Origin: a virus
IMG/VR virus record: IMGVR_UViG_3300025151_000022
Location: 24,236 to 88,235 of that record
Strand: one strand, 5' to 3'
Length of the DNA stretch: 64,000 bases
Shown: piece by piece, positions 23,269-58,727 of the stretch
Layout: every line of letters begins with the position of its first letter
How positions within the stretch are numbered: position 1 is the first letter of the stretch
Translations under genes and position numbers: made by a program
Notes under the pieces: generated by a model
Told to the model about the DNA's origin: nothing
The model's database searches: none
The model's input: the letters and a program-made list of their open reading frames with translations, nothing else

Positions 23269-24921
23269 CTAGGTTAAAGTACTACCATAATCTTCAATTT
23301 TTATATAACCATAATCATTATTACCACCAACAGTTGAAGAAATTATAGTAATTTCTCCGTTAGAATATCCAGATCCACCTCCACCACCGGATCCATCTGA
23401 TAATGCCGCTGATCCACCTTCAACTCCAGCGCCACCACCTCCTTGATTTCCACTACCATTACCACCGTTTCTTCTAAAATTTCCTCCTGCTTTATAACCC
23501 CTATCTATCTGTGCAGTTTGTGCAATCTCAGTTCCACTAGAGTTTCTATACTTTATATTACCTAAGTTTTGACATTGAGAATATCCTTGATTCGCCCAGT
23601 AATCACCTACAGTACATGTTGAAAGTTTTCCTCCAACTATATTATTTGAATTATTGCTATACGATGTAGTGTTATTAAAGTTCACTGTTTTTGCATACGA
23701 TCCAACGTCATCTAATACACCAATATTAAATCTTACTCCTCCATTTCCACCATTTCTTCCTACACCATCTTCTCCAGCAAGATTTACTCCACCACCATCA
23801 CCACCTCTATTATTTTGTCCGCCACCGCCACCTCCGCCGCAGACTGCAACTAAGTTTGCTCTTCTATGAAAAATGGATGCTCCTCCCCCACCAACAACTC
23901 CACCAAAATCATTACTGCCGCCAACTGAATATGGAACGCCAAGTCTAATGAAGTATTCTTCATCTTGATTTAAAGTTAATCGGAAAGAAGATAATCCACC
24001 CTCACCACCACGATTTCCATTTTTAGTATCGCCCTTAGAACCACCCAAAGTAATAAGAACATCAACATCTTTCTCTGTTGGATATATTACAACAGATCTT
24101 TCGTCAGAGTCATTTGCGTCAAATTCTAAGAATCCTTGATTGACTAAATCTTTAACTCCTCCACCATTCCAAGAAGAATCTACTAGTTCATATGCAAGTA
24201 TAGACCTTGCAGAAACAACATTTAATAATATGTCATTACTTACTACTTGAGAAGGTATTGCGTTTGGATTTGATACTGTGCAATTTACAAGATAAGTTCC
24301 AATGCCAAGATTTTGCCCATCAATGTCCCCTGTCGTAACTGTATATGTTGTTGATTGATCACCACTAGCATATGCAGGTTCATTTATGATTTGCCCATCA
24401 ATTCTCCATTGATATGATAATGCACTATCATCCGTGATAGTTGCAGATACATTAAATGTTGCATTTTGGTTTTCTGCAGTAGTTACTGTAGTCGCAGCAA
24501 CAGATACTCCTATTTCGGGTGCAGTAATTACAATAGCTACATCAGAATTTTTCGGATCTACTACTGCATTTCCAGTTGTTCCATTTGCATATGCTGAAGG
24601 AATATAGTCTGCACGAAGAAAAAATTGATCTTGGGCGTTGTTGGGGTTTAGAAGATTTGTGACCGTAAGACTTGTAGTTGCTGATCCAACTACGTTATTA
24701 CTATCGATTAAAGGTCCGCTATTGTTATACCACTGATAAACAATTGATCCAGTATTTGATGATCTCTCTGTTTGCCCCTCTGGAAATATTGCAGTAGCAA
24801 ATCCAGATAGTGTTACAGAACCTCGATGGTTTGTCGTAAGTCCGACAGGATTTTCGGTGAAGACTATCGTTGGACCATTAAGATCCAACGTTGTGTTTAC
24901 TTTGGGGAATAACTCACTCAT
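23269..24921 (-). CDS. Ig-like plus glycine-rich domain protein (gp38-adhesin-like tip protein)
   Basis: 550 aa; two Ig-type YQW modules followed by many GGGGG/GGxGG runs; ATGA overlap with the upstream fibre gene. Confidence 0.65.
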   Translation of the reverse strand: MSELFPKVNTTLDLNGPTIVFTENPVGLTTNHRGSVTLSGFATAIFPEGQTERSSNTGSIVYQWYNNSGPLIDSNNVVGSATTSLTVTNLLNPNNAQDQFFLRADYIPSAYANGTTGNAVVDPKNSDVAIVITAPEIGVSVAATTVTTAENQNATFNVSATITDDSALSYQWRIDGQIINEPAYASGDQSTTYTVTTGDIDGQNLGIGTYLVNCTVSNPNAIPSQVVSNDILLNVVSARSILAYELVDSSWNGGGVKDLVNQGFLEFDANDSDERSVVIYPTEKDVDVLITLGGSKGDTKNGNRGGEGGLSSFRLTLNQDEEYFIRLGVPYSVGGSNDFGGVVGGGGASIFHRRANLVAVCGGGGGGGQNNRGGDGGGVNLAGEDGVGRNGGNGGVRFNIGVLDDVGSYAKTVNFNNTTSYSNNSNNIVGGKLSTCTVGDYWANQGYSQCQNLGNIKYRNSSGTEIAQTAQIDRGYKAGGNFRRNGGNGSGNQGGGGAGVEGGSAALSDGSGGGGGSGYSNGEITIISSTVGGNNDYGYIKIEDYGSTLT

Positions 24922-31733: not shown

Positions 31734-31807
31734 AGCCAACTAACGGACTTGAACCGTTGACCTGAGCTTTACAAAAACCCTGCTCTATCCAGCTGAGCTA
31801 AGTTGGC
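31734..31807 (-). tRNA. trnT: tRNA-Thr(UGU)
   Basis: GCCAACT acceptor, GCTC/GAGC D arm, GGGTT-TTTGTAA-AGCTC anticodon arm, AACGG-TTCAAGT-CCGTT T arm; no encoded CCA. Confidence 0.93.
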
Positions 31808-32120: not shown

Positions 32121-32205
32121 TGCGAGTGGCGAGACTTGAACTCGCACGACTGTAATAGTCAACAGATTTTAAGTCTGGTGTGTCTACCGATTCCACCACA
32201 CTCGC
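32121..32205 (-). tRNA. trnL: tRNA-Leu(UAA)
   Basis: GCGAGTG acceptor, TGGTGGAATCGGTAGACAC D region, CAGA-CTTAAAA-TCTG anticodon arm, long variable arm, GCGAG-TTCAAGT-CTCGC T arm; no CCA. Confidence 0.93.
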
Positions 32206-56660: not shown

Positions 56661-57311
56661 TTAAGACCATTCCATTGCTTCAGCAACAGCAGGGAATTGT
56701 TCGATGAAGATTTTCTTTGCACCCAAAGCAATGTCCATGTGTTCCTTCTGTGTACCATTTGCAGAACGCAAATCGATATAATGGATCCATGATCTTACAG
56801 AACCGGTCATGTAGATTCTTGTGGGACAAGCGAGGGGAAGCACAAAACGCGAACACTCCTTTGCGATTCCATAATCAAGCATTGATTGATACAACACCAT
56901 TGCCTCATCAAAGTGGCGACGAATCTTGATTTCAAACTCCTGTTTCACAAATGGATCAATGTCATCGATAGAGTTCTGACGATTCTTTGTGTCTTGACGC
57001 CGAAGGTCAAACATAGGAATCGTCTCTGCCAACATAGAACTATCAGCATAACGTTGTGAAAATTCTTGATATGTGAACGAACGGTGCCGGAGCACTTGAG
57101 CTGCGATGCCTCTAGTGGTGTTGATCTCCAGAGTCATGTATGCCTGCTCAAAGATACTCCAGTGCTGGTGCTTCACACAATACTTAAGAAGACCAGAGAA
57201 CTTTTCGTTCTCCTGGTTATTTGGATTTGACACACGGGCACAATAAGCCATGTGCTTTTCTGCATCAGGTGTAACACTGATAAGTTTAATCGGGGTATCC
57301 GTCATCGTCAT
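56661..57311 (-). CDS. thyX: Flavin-dependent thymidylate synthase
   Basis: ARVSNP, H.HWSIFE, QVLRHRSFTYQEFSQRY (ThyX motif), RSWIHY..LR....TQKEH. Confidence 0.95.
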   Translation of the reverse strand: MTMTDTPIKLISVTPDAEKHMAYCARVSNPNNQENEKFSGLLKYCVKHQHWSIFEQAYMTLEINTTRGIAAQVLRHRSFTYQEFSQRYADSSMLAETIPMFDLRRQDTKNRQNSIDDIDPFVKQEFEIKIRRHFDEAMVLYQSMLDYGIAKECSRFVLPLACPTRIYMTGSVRSWIHYIDLRSANGTQKEHMDIALGAKKIFIEQFPAVAEAMEWS

Positions 57312-57482: not shown

Positions 57483-57511
57483 ATTATAGACAAAAAAAGA
57501 GGACTCGTCAA
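57483..57511 (-). promoter_or_regulatory. Host sigma70-type promoter overlapping a terminator
   Basis: TTGACG-N17-TATAAT; the -35 box sits in the terminator loop. Confidence 0.7.
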
Positions 57512-57522
57512 GAGTCCTCTTT
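57492..57522 (-). terminator. Rho-independent terminator closing the riboswitch/YRG-peptide unit
   Basis: AAAGAGGACTC-TTGAC-GAGTCCTC-TTTTTTT. Confidence 0.85.
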
Positions 57523-57672
57523 GATCTTCCAGATTTTATCACTTCGTGATTTTAAATCTATCCATTTGGCATAATGTACACCACGATAAGTTAAAAATCC
57601 GAAGACTTTATCTGGATCGTGTTTCGATGGATCGTAGTCTGGAAGGTCATATTCAAATCTGACCTTCAGCAT
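57508..57672 (-). CDS. YRG-motif (DUF4278-like) small protein, 54 aa
   Basis: Not in the track; GAGGAG SD; MLKVRFEYDLPDYDPSKHDPDKVFGFLTYRGVHYAKW... Confidence 0.7.
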   Translation of the reverse strand: MLKVRFEYDLPDYDPSKHDPDKVFGFLTYRGVHYAKWIDLKSRSDKIWKIKEDS

Positions 57673-57681
57673 TTTTTCTCC

Positions 57682-57780
57682 TCAACTTATTTTTTTGAGA
57701 AGTAATAATTCACCGTACAATAAAAAAATAAATGCTGCACTAAAAAGGGAACCTAATCCCGCTACTTGAAGTGCTTGCAT
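57682..57780 (-). CDS. Small hydrophobic (single-TM) peptide, 32 aa
   Basis: MQALQVAGLGSLFSAAFIFLLYGELLLLKKIS; GAGGA SD; this is the 3' part of track ORF 57682..57924. Confidence 0.55.
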   Translation of the reverse strand: MQALQVAGLGSLFSAAFIFLLYGELLLLKKIS

Positions 57781-57787
57781 AATATCC

Positions 57788-57955
57788 TCACTTAGCGTAA
57801 GGTGTACCACGATAGCAGAAAACACCGTGGGTGTCTTTTGCTTCGAAGCAACGAGTATCATACTCAACACCACGATATGAGGTGTGCATGATTTGTGCGT
57901 CGTGAAGGGCAGATGCTTTTTCAATCTGCTTCTTGATGAGAGTTAAGGTGTTCAT
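57788..57955 (-). CDS. DUF4278-like small protein with two YRG motifs, 55 aa
   Basis: Not in the track; AGGAG SD; MNTLTLIKKQIEKASALHDAQIMHTSYRGVEYDTRCFEAKDTHGVFCYRGTPYAK. Confidence 0.8.
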   Translation of the reverse strand: MNTLTLIKKQIEKASALHDAQIMHTSYRGVEYDTRCFEAKDTHGVFCYRGTPYAK

Positions 57956-58012
57956 TTGTTTTCTCCTGAAGTGGGTGATTAACCTTCTCTGCTTTCGCAG
58001 GATCCGTTTCCC

Positions 58013-58191
58013 CGTTCCTTCAGTCGTTTGCGTCCCAGTAACACTCAGGCACAGAGTCCTTTACTGTCTCAACAAGTTCTAGCACCACTGCTGGTGGTAG
58101 ATCTTTGTGCTTGGCAATCCGAAGCATTAAAGCATCGGCTTCTTGACAATTGAGTGCTGTGTAGAGTAATAGCTCAACCATGGGATGAACG
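58013..58191 (-). ncRNA. Glutamine-riboswitch-like aptamer 2 (glnA/Downstream-peptide class) with an ORF in the P2 loop
   Basis: CGTTC-ATCCCA...TGGGAC-GCAAA-CGACTGAAG-GAACG; P1 CGUUC/GAACG, P2 UCCCA/UGGGA; upstream of a YRG-peptide gene. Confidence 0.7.
58020..58181 (-). CDS. Small two-Cys protein encoded inside aptamer 2 (53 aa)
   Basis: Not in the track; MVELLLYTALNCQEADALMLRIAKHKDLPPAVVLELVETVKDSVPECYWDAND; the last codons overlap the aptamer 3' strand. Confidence 0.65.
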   Translation of the reverse strand: MVELLLYTALNCQEADALMLRIAKHKDLPPAVVLELVETVKDSVPECYWDAND

Positions 58192-58194
58192 CTC

Positions 58195-58425
58195 CGTTCC
58201 GCGACTTACTTGCGTCCTTAGGTAAATGTACTGTTGCATTGACCTTCAACTTTTGATCTGAAATAACCTATGAGATTGTACTTCGATCGTTGATCGATGT
58301 CGTCCCTCATTTGAGTTTCAACTCTAAGTTGTAAGAACCTTTCACAAGACATATGCCACCCATAGGGTGACGGATCGTGATGGGCTAAGGTGAAAGCCAA
58401 CAGTAAAGAAACCATTGGATGAACG
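58195..58425 (-). ncRNA. Glutamine-riboswitch-like aptamer 1 with an ORF in the P2 loop
   Basis: CGTTC-ATCC...GGAC-GCAAGTAAGTCGCG-GAACG; begins about 7 nt after the -10 box. Confidence 0.65.
58218..58415 (-). CDS. Small two-Cys protein encoded inside aptamer 1 (65 aa)
   Basis: Track ORF; ATG directly follows CGTTCATCCA and TAA directly precedes GGACGCA; hydrophobic N-terminus. Confidence 0.7.
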   Translation of the reverse strand: MVSLLLAFTLAHHDPSPYGWHMSCERFLQLRVETQMRDDIDQRSKYNLIGYFRSKVEGQCNSTFT

Positions 58426-58432
58426 TAGGTCT

Positions 58433-58461
58433 AGTATAGACCTTATGTTCTATATAGTCAA
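58433..58461 (-). promoter_or_regulatory. Host sigma70-type promoter of the riboswitch unit
   Basis: TTGACT-N17-TATACT. Confidence 0.75.
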
Positions 58462-58468
58462 GTTTATA

Positions 58469-58484
58469 TGTATCTCTTGATACA
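58469..58484. promoter_or_regulatory. Putative NtcA binding site
   Basis: TGTATC-TCTT-GATACA fits TGTA-N8-TACA with 6-bp perfect arms, 7 nt upstream of the -35 box. Confidence 0.65.
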
Positions 58485-58487
58485 ACT

Positions 58488-58727
58488 TTACAAGAACATT
58501 CCCTTATCACTCATGTACTTTAGAGTTTCTTTCAGTGTACCACGATGATCTAAACCAATGGCAACTTGAGGATACTCCGCCTCACTACCAAATTCATCAC
58601 GGAACTGCTTATCACTGAAGTCAACACCAAGCAAAAACTGCCTTACATCTTGACCACATGCTTCAAGTACCATCTTTGCTCTTTCGGATTCTTGACTTCC
58701 GTTACTATAAACTAGTGCTTGAATCAT
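58488..58727 (-). CDS. Glutaredoxin-like protein lacking CxxC
   Basis: YSNGSQESERAK..L...F...FG....YPQV.I...H.G; Grx-fold pattern without active-site Cys. Confidence 0.6.
   Translation of the reverse strand: MIQALVYSNGSQESERAKMVLEACGQDVRQFLLGVDFSDKQFRDEFGSEAEYPQVAIGLDHRGTLKETLKYMSDKGMFL

Follow-up and report, generated by a model that had tools for sequence, protein, structure and literature searches.

The locus described here lies in a 64,000-nucleotide (nt) stretch of viral DNA (IMG/VR record IMGVR_UViG_3300025151_000022, positions 24,236 to 88,235), which as a whole is termed the window below. On its minus strand, two short open reading frames (ORFs), ORF1 and ORF2, are interspersed with recurring motifs of the glutamine-riboswitch type, and a third, ORF3, follows downstream. 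A first reading of the letters, hereafter the sequence-only reading, had noted that AGTCG in the first set of motifs complements CGACT in the second, and had proposed two glutamine aptamers interlocked through this pairing. Comparison with homologous cyanophage loci led us to the model that we consider probable, namely a nested double glutamine-riboswitch core that encloses ORF1 and ORF2 and would act as a glutamine ON switch for ORF3. Glutamine riboswitches and their frequent pairing are already known; the analysis suggests that what is new is the nested layout with a shared helix.

Layout of the locus and its shared helix

Read 5' to 3' on the minus strand, the region begins with CGUUC (58425-58421), A, UCC, A and the AUG of ORF1 (58415-58218), followed by GGA-CGCAAGUA (58217-58207). 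It goes on with AGUCG (58206-58202), C, G-GAACG (58199-58195), GAG, CGUUC (58191-58187), A and UCCCA, and ends with ORF2 (58181-58020), UGGGA-CGCAAA (58037-58027), CGACU (58026-58022), GAAG, GAACG (58017-58013) and GGGG. The upstream and downstream sets of motifs are called units A and B, and the CGUUC and GAACG strands are numbered in order of appearance. Helices P1 to P3 and loop E are named after Glutamine-I (Rfam RF01739). Many relatives carry a short hairpin in place of ORF1 or ORF2 and are referred to as compact. The elements of the two cores, with the roles predicted for them by the comparison below, are as follows.

58421-58425, minus strand: CGUUC#1, 5' strand of the outer P1, pairing with GAACG#2 (58013-58017); RF01739 aligns the compact homologues alike.
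58417-58419, minus strand: UCC, 5' strand of P2a in the outer core, pairing with GGA (58215-58217).
58218-58415, minus strand: ORF1, 65 amino acids (aa), phrog_6471, in the P2a loop; the AUG lies some 10 nt from the 5' end predicted for the RNA.
58207-58217, minus strand: GGA (3' strand of P2a) and the outer junction ACGCAAGUA; C58212 is the partner of G58012, and AGUA (58207-58210) is the 5' half of loop E.
58202-58206, minus strand: AGUCG, 5' strand of the shared P3, non-coding, covarying among homologues.
58187-58199, minus strand: inner P1 hairpin GAACG#1-GAG-CGUUC#2; G58194 is the long-range partner of C58030.
58181-58185, minus strand: UCCCA, 5' strand of P2b in the inner core, pairing with UGGGA (58033-58037); the ORF2 start codon begins with A58181.
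58020-58181, minus strand: ORF2, 53 aa, phrog_504, in the P2b loop.
58027-58037, minus strand: UGGGA (3' strand of P2b) and the inner junction ACGCAAA, without a loop-E half; C58030 is the partner of G58194.
58022-58026, minus strand: CGACU, 3' strand of the shared P3, inside ORF2, covarying among homologues.
58012-58021, minus strand: GAAG (3' half of loop E), GAACG#2 (58013-58017, 3' strand of the outer P1) and G58012, partner of C58212.

AGUCG stands in the context GGACGCAAGUA-AGUCG-CGGAACG-GAG-CGUUCAUCCCAUG (58206..58202) and CGACU in the context UGGGACGCAAA-CGACU-GAAGGAACGGGG (58026..58022); their complementarity, with the coordinates first given for it, is exact on the minus strand. We also agree that a local P3 hairpin is absent from both units. 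It should be added that CGACU occurs 47 times in the 64-kb window, both strands counted, against 42.7 expected, and that a 5-mer complement within about 180 nt of one sequence is no more than chance; the pairing is therefore shown by the comparison of homologues and not by the single sequence.

Homologues were collected by pattern scans of viral contigs that fixed only the unit-A junction and GGAACG; the position of AGUCG was left free, and unit B with CGACU figured in no pattern. Together with four phage loci (Syn9, Syn19, S-CAM1 and Sf-CH1b) and the window, this yielded 242 sequences. The second unit could be parsed in 162 of them, which represent 143 distinct sequences; the remaining 80, either fortuitous matches or loci truncated at the end of a contig, were set aside. 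Furthermore, an alignment of 126 distinct sequences was prepared, in which every member carries an ORF-sized insert between the strands.

Across these homologues AGUCG and CGACU change together, as the sequence-only reading would lead one to expect: all five positions of P3 are paired in 142 of the 143 distinct sequences, 31 of which have changes on both sides, and 12 strand combinations were found. These were AGUCG/CGACU (105 distinct sequences), AAUCG/CGAUU (11), GAUCG/CGAUU (7), AGUCA/UGACU (5), GGUCG/CGACU, AUUCG/CGAAU and AGACU/AGUCU (3 each), AGUCG/CGGCU (2), and AGUCU/AGACU, AAUCU/AGAUU, AGUCG/CGAUU and AGUCG/CGACC (1 each), the last being the sole combination with a mismatch. In the 126-sequence alignment P3 is 99.4% paired, and double-sided changes occur in three of the five pairs (22, 3 and 7 cells). 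The whole tested structure is 91.1% paired there, versus 27-46% with slid partners, and its covariation score is 0.116, versus 0.052 with shuffled partners (0/500 shuffles as high) and <=0.052 with slid ones. Several of the CGACU substitutions, moreover, leave the ORF2 protein unchanged (GAC to GAU, AAC to AAU) and are matched in the non-coding AGUCG, which points to selection acting on the RNA. The idea of two glutamine-type cores with one common helix is thus borne out by covariation, and this P3 is no hairpin of the kind found in RF01739, its strands being 175 nt apart and enclosing the inner core and ORF2.

Both P2 stems directly follow CGUUCA, as in RF01739, with an ORF instead of a few bases as the loop. 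P2b is 96.7% paired in the 126-sequence alignment, with changes on both sides in three of five pairs, and has 5.585 of 7 positions paired against 5.294 with shuffled partners. For P2a, which in homologues reaches 5-8 pairs with covariation (UCUUAUG/CAUAAGA, UCUCAC/GUGAGA), the corresponding values are 5.67 of 7 and 5.28; in either case 0/1000 shuffles scored as high. In the minimum-energy fold of 58215-58419 (minus strand), the beginning of ORF1 is base-paired to its end (ACUGUUGG with CAACAGU, GGU with ACC), extending P2a into a long irregular stem.

Nesting of the two cores

The two CGUUC and two GAACG strands (58425-21, 58191-87, 58199-95 and 58017-13) are nearly invariant in the homologues. 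Being identical, these P1 strands cannot decide which pairs with which; the long-range pair beside P1 can. This pair covaries in the glutamine-I family (PMC7657543; papers given by PMC number are cited here from part of their text), where by the Rfam consensus it is G...C. The sequence-only reading had seen GCA in both junctions and G after P1 as signs of a compensated pair. Both junctions indeed read ACGCA, with G at 58194 and 58012, the glutamine-II long-range pair is likewise C19:G41 (PMC6698751), and the pairs equivalent to C58212:G58012 and C58030:G58194 covary in the homologues.

The relevant bases were written as quartets, with J23 of unit A and the base that follows GAACG#1 first, then J23 of unit B and the base that follows GAACG#2. 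Among the 143 distinct sequences these were CGCG in 134, GGCC in 6, CCGG in 1 and CGAG in 2. For GGCC and CCGG, Watson-Crick pairing requires that J23 of unit A meet the base following GAACG#2, and J23 of unit B the one following GAACG#1; hence seven sequences from two lineages have long-range pairs that are complementary only under nesting. The scan that brought up the GGCC group prescribed only the unit-A G; 11 of its 40 loci were double units, all 11 with the quartet GGCC. The linker between GAACG and CGUUC measures 3 nt in 133/162 loci and 4 nt in 27/162, the length expected for a hairpin loop, which again agrees with nesting. Two topologies had been left open at the outset: the one with swapped P1 strands (outer CGUUC/GAACG, inner GAACG-GAG-CGUUC hairpin) is retained, and the side-by-side kissing form is disfavoured by the seven sequences together with the 3-4 nt linker in 160/162 loci. 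In two relatives (L082:205-481 and L124:14-331) about 60-100 nt are inserted between GAACG#1 and CGUUC#2, and the inner P1 loop is thereby a third site of the sensor that tolerates extra sequence.

In the outer core, ACGCAAGUA and GAAG occupy the places expected from the RF01739 junction ACGGAAGUA with AGUA opposite GAA, and a loop-E fold is predicted for it; in the compact homologues this junction is aligned to the RF01739 consensus GaCGGAAGUA. At the inner junction, ACGCAAA and CG stand in place of ACGGAAGUA and GAAG, so that loop E is absent. Nesting agrees with the known three-way-junction connectivity, which it preserves at both ends of P3, the inner junction being a circular permutation without loop E. 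On comparative grounds we regard the helices and their nesting as shown, and for the window itself we infer the topology by homology with the compact forms.

In this arrangement, the minus-strand RNA of about 58425 to 57955 would make up the leader and initial portion of a small cyanomyophage operon. Its outer core would be a type-1 (glnA-like) three-way junction made of P1 (CGUUC#1:GAACG#2), P2a, ACGCAAGUA, loop E (AGUA/GAA) and P3. The inner core, located at the distal end of P3, would form a circular permutation lacking loop E, with the P1 hairpin GAACG#1-GAG-CGUUC#2, P2b and ACGCAAA. Each core would have its own long-range C:G pair, C58212:G58012 in the outer and C58030:G58194 in the inner one, and the terminal loops of P2a and P2b appear to be replaced by the paralogous microprotein genes ORF1 and ORF2. 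Beyond the sequence-only reading, this suggests that ORF1, too, is enclosed by the outer core and that the 3' strand of the shared helix doubles as an anti-Shine-Dalgarno sequence.

Genes inside the predicted sensor and the proposed switch before ORF3

ORF1 starts without a Shine-Dalgarno sequence; of 52 ORF-sized P2a inserts, 44 contain it intact. The ORF2 frame and stop position are the same in 125/130 loci (UGA 92, UAA 33), and in these 125 the stop codon consists of the last P3 base and the first two bases of loop E; in the window the last codons, W-D-A-N-D-stop, coincide with the inner junction, the 3' strand of P3 and the first loop-E bases. Differences among homologues at first, second and third codon positions amount to 0.247/0.179/0.456 for ORF1 and 0.463/0.240/0.584 for ORF2, and by this third > first > second pattern both are shown to be real coding genes, as judged from substitutions. 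GGAG at 58192-58195, 10 nt before the ORF2 AUG, is a possible Shine-Dalgarno sequence for ORF2. Neither phrog_6471 nor phrog_504 carries a functional annotation, and searches of the ESM Atlas with ORF1 and ORF2 matched only unnamed viral clusters. The two families are paralogous (hhalign 95.5%, E 1.4e-8, 47 columns, both cysteines aligned), and by this kinship the sensor-with-gene unit looks duplicated. We had also considered that several unrelated gene families occupy the P2b loop, an idea dropped when single-linkage blastp put all 125 proteins in one cluster.

The stretch resembles 416 phage records, all of them Synechococcus or Prochlorococcus cyanophages; the counterpart in phage Syn9 is gp196-gp197-gp198, between nrdB and talC. 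Among 147 distinct full regions, 90 have a compact P2a and 52 an ORF-sized one; for P2b the corresponding numbers are 17 and 130, and in 49 regions both are ORF-sized, as in the window. Contigs of marine metatranscriptomes (4 runs, 3 studies) match parts of the stretch, with transcript ends, strand and level not deducible from them and DNA carry-over possible. Some contigs from marine RNA libraries (runs X2, X3 and X5) join 58036 to 58182 via only CGAA or CGAG; these are relatives with a UUCG-type P2b tetraloop instead of ORF2, and gene-bearing and gene-less forms coexist in the sea.

A loose pattern applied to cellular genomes gave at least 120 matches; among the 120 listed, 3 had a nearby CGUUCA and none was real. 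With a tighter pattern there were 63 matches, of which 8 passed the filter and 6 look real, all 6 followed by an ORF2-type gene. These six records with the nested sensor (L370, L385, L398, L409, L411 and L421; contigs of 1.6-194 kb) bear titles of a Synechococcus metagenome-assembled genome (MAG), a Verrucomicrobiales MAG, an uncultured bacterium, a Nonlabens isolate and a Euryarchaeota MAG. Probably they represent cyanophage sequence that ended up in cellular bins or assemblies, and the scans say little about host chromosomes.

Around the sensor the following features were recognised.

58433-58461, minus strand: sigma-70-like promoter TTGACT-17 nt-TATACT, 10/12 consensus matches, with the predicted start at or just before CGUUC#1.
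57963-58023, minus strand: predicted expression platform, with CUGAAG (58018-58023) complementary to CUUCAG (57966-57971).
57788-57955, minus strand: ORF3, 55 aa, with YRG..Y motifs, phrog_545, DUF4278-like (IF17-like).
57508-57672, minus strand: ORF4, 54 aa, phrog_6192, containing YRGVHY, a second YRG-type motif.
57496-57522, minus strand: terminator-like hairpin, probable end of the unit.

CUGAAG comprises the last two bases of P3, GAA of loop E and G, and its partner CUUCAG overlaps the Shine-Dalgarno sequence AGGAG of ORF3 (57963-57967). Unconstrained minimum-energy folding (-134.3 kcal/mol) yields the resulting helix, and all six of its positions are paired in 108/127 homologues. The variable base of the ORF2 stop codon covaries with its partner in CUUCAG (G:C 58, A:U 37, G:U 26, G:A 6, A:C 0). 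We consider this alternative anti-Shine-Dalgarno helix as shown at the comparative level. A GAAA-capped hairpin, CUGC/GCAG (57989-58000, minus strand), separates the sensor from the ORF3 ribosome-binding site; its stem differs yet pairs in Syn19 (CUCC/GGAG) and Syn9 (CAGC/GCUG).

ORF3 is a full-length member of phrog_545 and matches PF14105 over residues 23-54 with E 7.3e-5 and 23.5 bits, the Pfam gathering cut-off being 25.3 bits. It is most likely the gene controlled by the sensor. In marine picocyanobacteria, genes of the DUF4278/IF17 type are controlled by glutamine riboswitches of the ON kind (PMC6212724, PMC6698751). It is from the masking helix of CUGAAG and from this gene class that an ON switch is proposed for ORF3.

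The following mechanism may be envisaged. Without glutamine, CUGAAG would pair with CUUCAG, and the ribosome-binding site of ORF3 would be partly masked. Glutamine would stabilise both cores, mutually dependent through P3, which would remove the masking strand and turn ORF3 on. Folding of the sensor would at the same time bury the start codons of ORF1 and ORF2 and the GGAG before ORF2, and ribosomes on ORF2 would have to melt P2b and P3; sensing and translation of ORF1/ORF2 should therefore exclude each other on a given molecule. Ligand binding, switch direction and cooperativity are predictions in this scheme. A bolder version, possible but doubtful, is an aptamer-in-aptamer, two-site cooperative sensor combined with a reciprocal switch, in which case many published tandems would be nested too. 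At low glutamine, ribosomes would read the two-cysteine ORF1 and ORF2 and keep the sensor unfolded, and at high glutamine the sensor would fold, silence them and turn on the IF17-like ORF3.

As to the surroundings, a TTGAC...TAnnnT box lies at a like distance in 83/140 homologous loci. An NtcA-like GTA-N8-TAC box (58470-58483, minus strand) is located upstream of the -35 hexamer and starts 58 nt before CGUUC#1, its centre being near -51 from the predicted start; a box of this kind is found <=90 nt upstream in 70/131 homologous loci, mostly at -58/-59 or -53/-54. The classical NtcA box is centred at -41.5. Downstream, a strong promoter-like TTGACG-17-TATAAT (57511-57483, minus strand, 11/12 matches) overlaps the terminator-like hairpin, followed by an ORF of 216 aa (56661-57311, minus strand), a putative flavin-dependent thymidylate synthase (ThyX) by its RHR..S motif. 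Two transfer RNA genes lie at 31734-31807 and 32121-32205 (minus strand; 59.5 and 59.0 bits).

Alternative readings and relation to known systems

Membership in a known family is clearest in the compact relatives: RF01739 scores four of them (L014, L019, L060 and L035) at 38.4-43.6 bits, versus a cut-off of 35, and aligns them as one aptamer, with CGUUC#1...GAACG#2 as P1, AGU...ACU as P3 and an insert of 38-48 nt in P3. A covariance model cannot draw pseudoknots, and this alignment alone is undecisive for topology. For RF01704 (Glutamine-II), only L035, with unit B and the 3' flank, reaches 34.0 bits, the others scoring 18.8-32.7, and nothing in the window attained its cut-off of 33 bits. Neither glutamine family matched the phage loci Syn9, Syn19, S-CAM1 and Sf-CH1b, permissive thresholds included. 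The sequence data support the element of the window being a predicted glutamine riboswitch, whose compact relatives belong to RF01739 by score and which itself departs from that family in P3, P2 and topology.

A number of observations weigh against the nested double core. The Rfam glutamine families gave no match in the window at the gathering cut-off, none in 57600-58700 at E<=10 and none in the whole 88-kb record at E<=1; ORF-sized inserts probably cost the window its RF01739 score. A covariance model of our own, built from 14 compact nested tandems, matched the window only at the central junction (58123-58230, 25.4 bits); such a model cannot bridge ORF-sized loops, hence no whole-element score is obtained and membership rests on element-by-element comparison. 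All sequences that tell nested from side-by-side are compact forms, the CGCG quartet of the window being uninformative. P2a in the window is short (3 pairs at the junction, 3 mismatches, then GGU:ACC), the inner long-range pair is A.G in the two CGAG sequences, and loop E has AAA instead of GAA in 33/125 loci with the shared ORF2 frame. When 480 nt were folded by energy minimisation without constraints, the aptamer helices did not come out, and the anti-Shine-Dalgarno hairpin did appear. Finally, three of the scans were enriched for AGUCG-strand variants, and kinship among the sequences inflates the shuffle controls.

Three other readings were considered. In a side-by-side tandem, CGUUC#1 would pair with GAACG#1 and CGUUC#2 with GAACG#2, each across its own ORF, with AGUCG:CGACU as a pseudoknot-like bridge. 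The identical P1 strands permit either pairing, the quartet of the window fits both models, and in reviews glutamine doublets count as units that are independent of each other and pseudo-cooperative (PMC9481103). The GGCC (6) and CCGG (1) quartets, however, would then be mismatched as G.G and C.C in both units, loop E would join strands leading to different P1 helices, unlike in the solved type-1 fold (PMC6698751), and the linker is fixed at 3-4 nt. When folds were enforced, the side-by-side one, in which P3 is impossible, lay 9.9 kcal/mol above the unconstrained minimum of -134.3 kcal/mol and the nested one 7.9, a difference of 2 kcal/mol. We find this arrangement quite unlikely. A dynamic switch, in which nested and side-by-side pairings interconvert during transcription or ribosome passage and the exchange is the regulatory step, would draw on that same difference being only 2 kcal/mol, on the exact duplication of the P1 strands and on the inner hairpin presumably being able to form once transcribed. 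No covariation was found that demands the side-by-side form, in which the seven sequences would lose both long-range pairs, and we rate it as very unlikely.

It is also conceivable, if unlikely, that the element is a relic that no longer senses: its halves would fail to assemble in the ORF-containing form and be kept for start signals, stop codons or the W-D-A-N-D tail, or unit B alone would form a glutamine-II-like pseudoknot with the downstream helix. P3 and P2b nevertheless covary in 126 sequences that all have ORF2, changes in the non-coding AGUCG track synonymous ones in CGACU, and the intergenic GGAACG-GAG-CGUUC is nearly invariant across phages only about 70% identical. Against these stand the missing Rfam match in the window, P2 helices of 3-5 pairs that must close loops of 160-200 nt, the RF01704 score of unit B with 3' flank in L035 (34.0 vs 33 bits) and the type-2 style C:G pair in the junctions.

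The nested double core, if true, would represent a novel mode of coupling between two ligand sites in an RNA, and its compact homologues offer a natural RNA of 85 nt in which cooperativity is directly testable. Genes in both sensor hairpins would mean an unusual competition between translation and metabolite sensing on one molecule, and the predicted glutamine sensor with its IF17-like peptides would place a host-like nitrogen-status circuit under phage control. One survey found glutamine aptamers in only two cyanophage genomes (PMC5473149); the locus being similar in 416 phage records, such scarcity may be explained by the family model being blind to the ORF-containing form.

Tandem glutamine riboswitches are known (Weinberg 2010, PMC2864571), and the seed alignment of that work already contains single units without a P3 hairpin. 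Sherlock 2022 (PMC9481103) assigns 157 doublets and 4 triplets to the pseudo-cooperative class; the words 'nested' and 'interlock' are absent from that review, and PMC7657543 uses 'nested' in a general sense only. Our literature search found no relevant paper on a nested, permuted, interlocked or shared-helix glutamine riboswitch; an earlier, fuller description of the tandem architecture may exist.

With Glutamine-I (RF01739; e.g. the Synechocystis gifB/IF17 leader, PMC6212724) the element shares P1 CGUUC/GAACG, P2 directly after CGUUCA, the junction ACGxAAGUA, the loop-E bases AGUA/GAA with their predicted fold, the P3 helix, a covarying long-range pair by P1 and an IF17/DUF4278-like gene downstream. 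It differs in that P3 is a helix of 180-nt range with a circularly permuted second core at its far end, protein genes occupy both P2 loops, and the long-range pair is C:G versus the consensus G:C. Glutamine-II (RF01704, Downstream-peptide motif) resembles it in the CGUUC/GAACG ligand-site helix, the ACGC junction, the C:G pair and, for the inner core, the lack of loop E, and it is found as an ON switch with DUF4278 microprotein genes in marine picocyanobacteria (PMC6212724). Unlike Glutamine-II, the window is without an H-type pseudoknot: GAACG lies in no loop of that kind, and the flanking helix CUGAAG:CUUCAG, next to GAACG#2, overlaps P3 and loop E and, by using their bases, should compete with the type-1-like fold.

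Published tandems likewise have two adjacent glutamine cores in one leader; in the available part of PMC9481103, however, they are described as side-by-side and pseudo-cooperative, with several expression platforms and no mention of genes inside the aptamer. The tandem glycine riboswitch (Table 1, PMC9481103) also couples two like aptamers to one platform and is a model for cooperative or sharpened responses. Its aptamers lie side by side and are joined by tertiary contacts, whereas here nested cores would share a Watson-Crick helix.

Group I introns carry protein genes inside their peripheral loops, and a folded RNA can thus tolerate a whole ORF in the loop of a helix. In those introns the passengers are mobile endonuclease genes in a ribozyme, whereas the present element holds conserved microprotein paralogues whose start and stop codons lie in the predicted sensor helices themselves.

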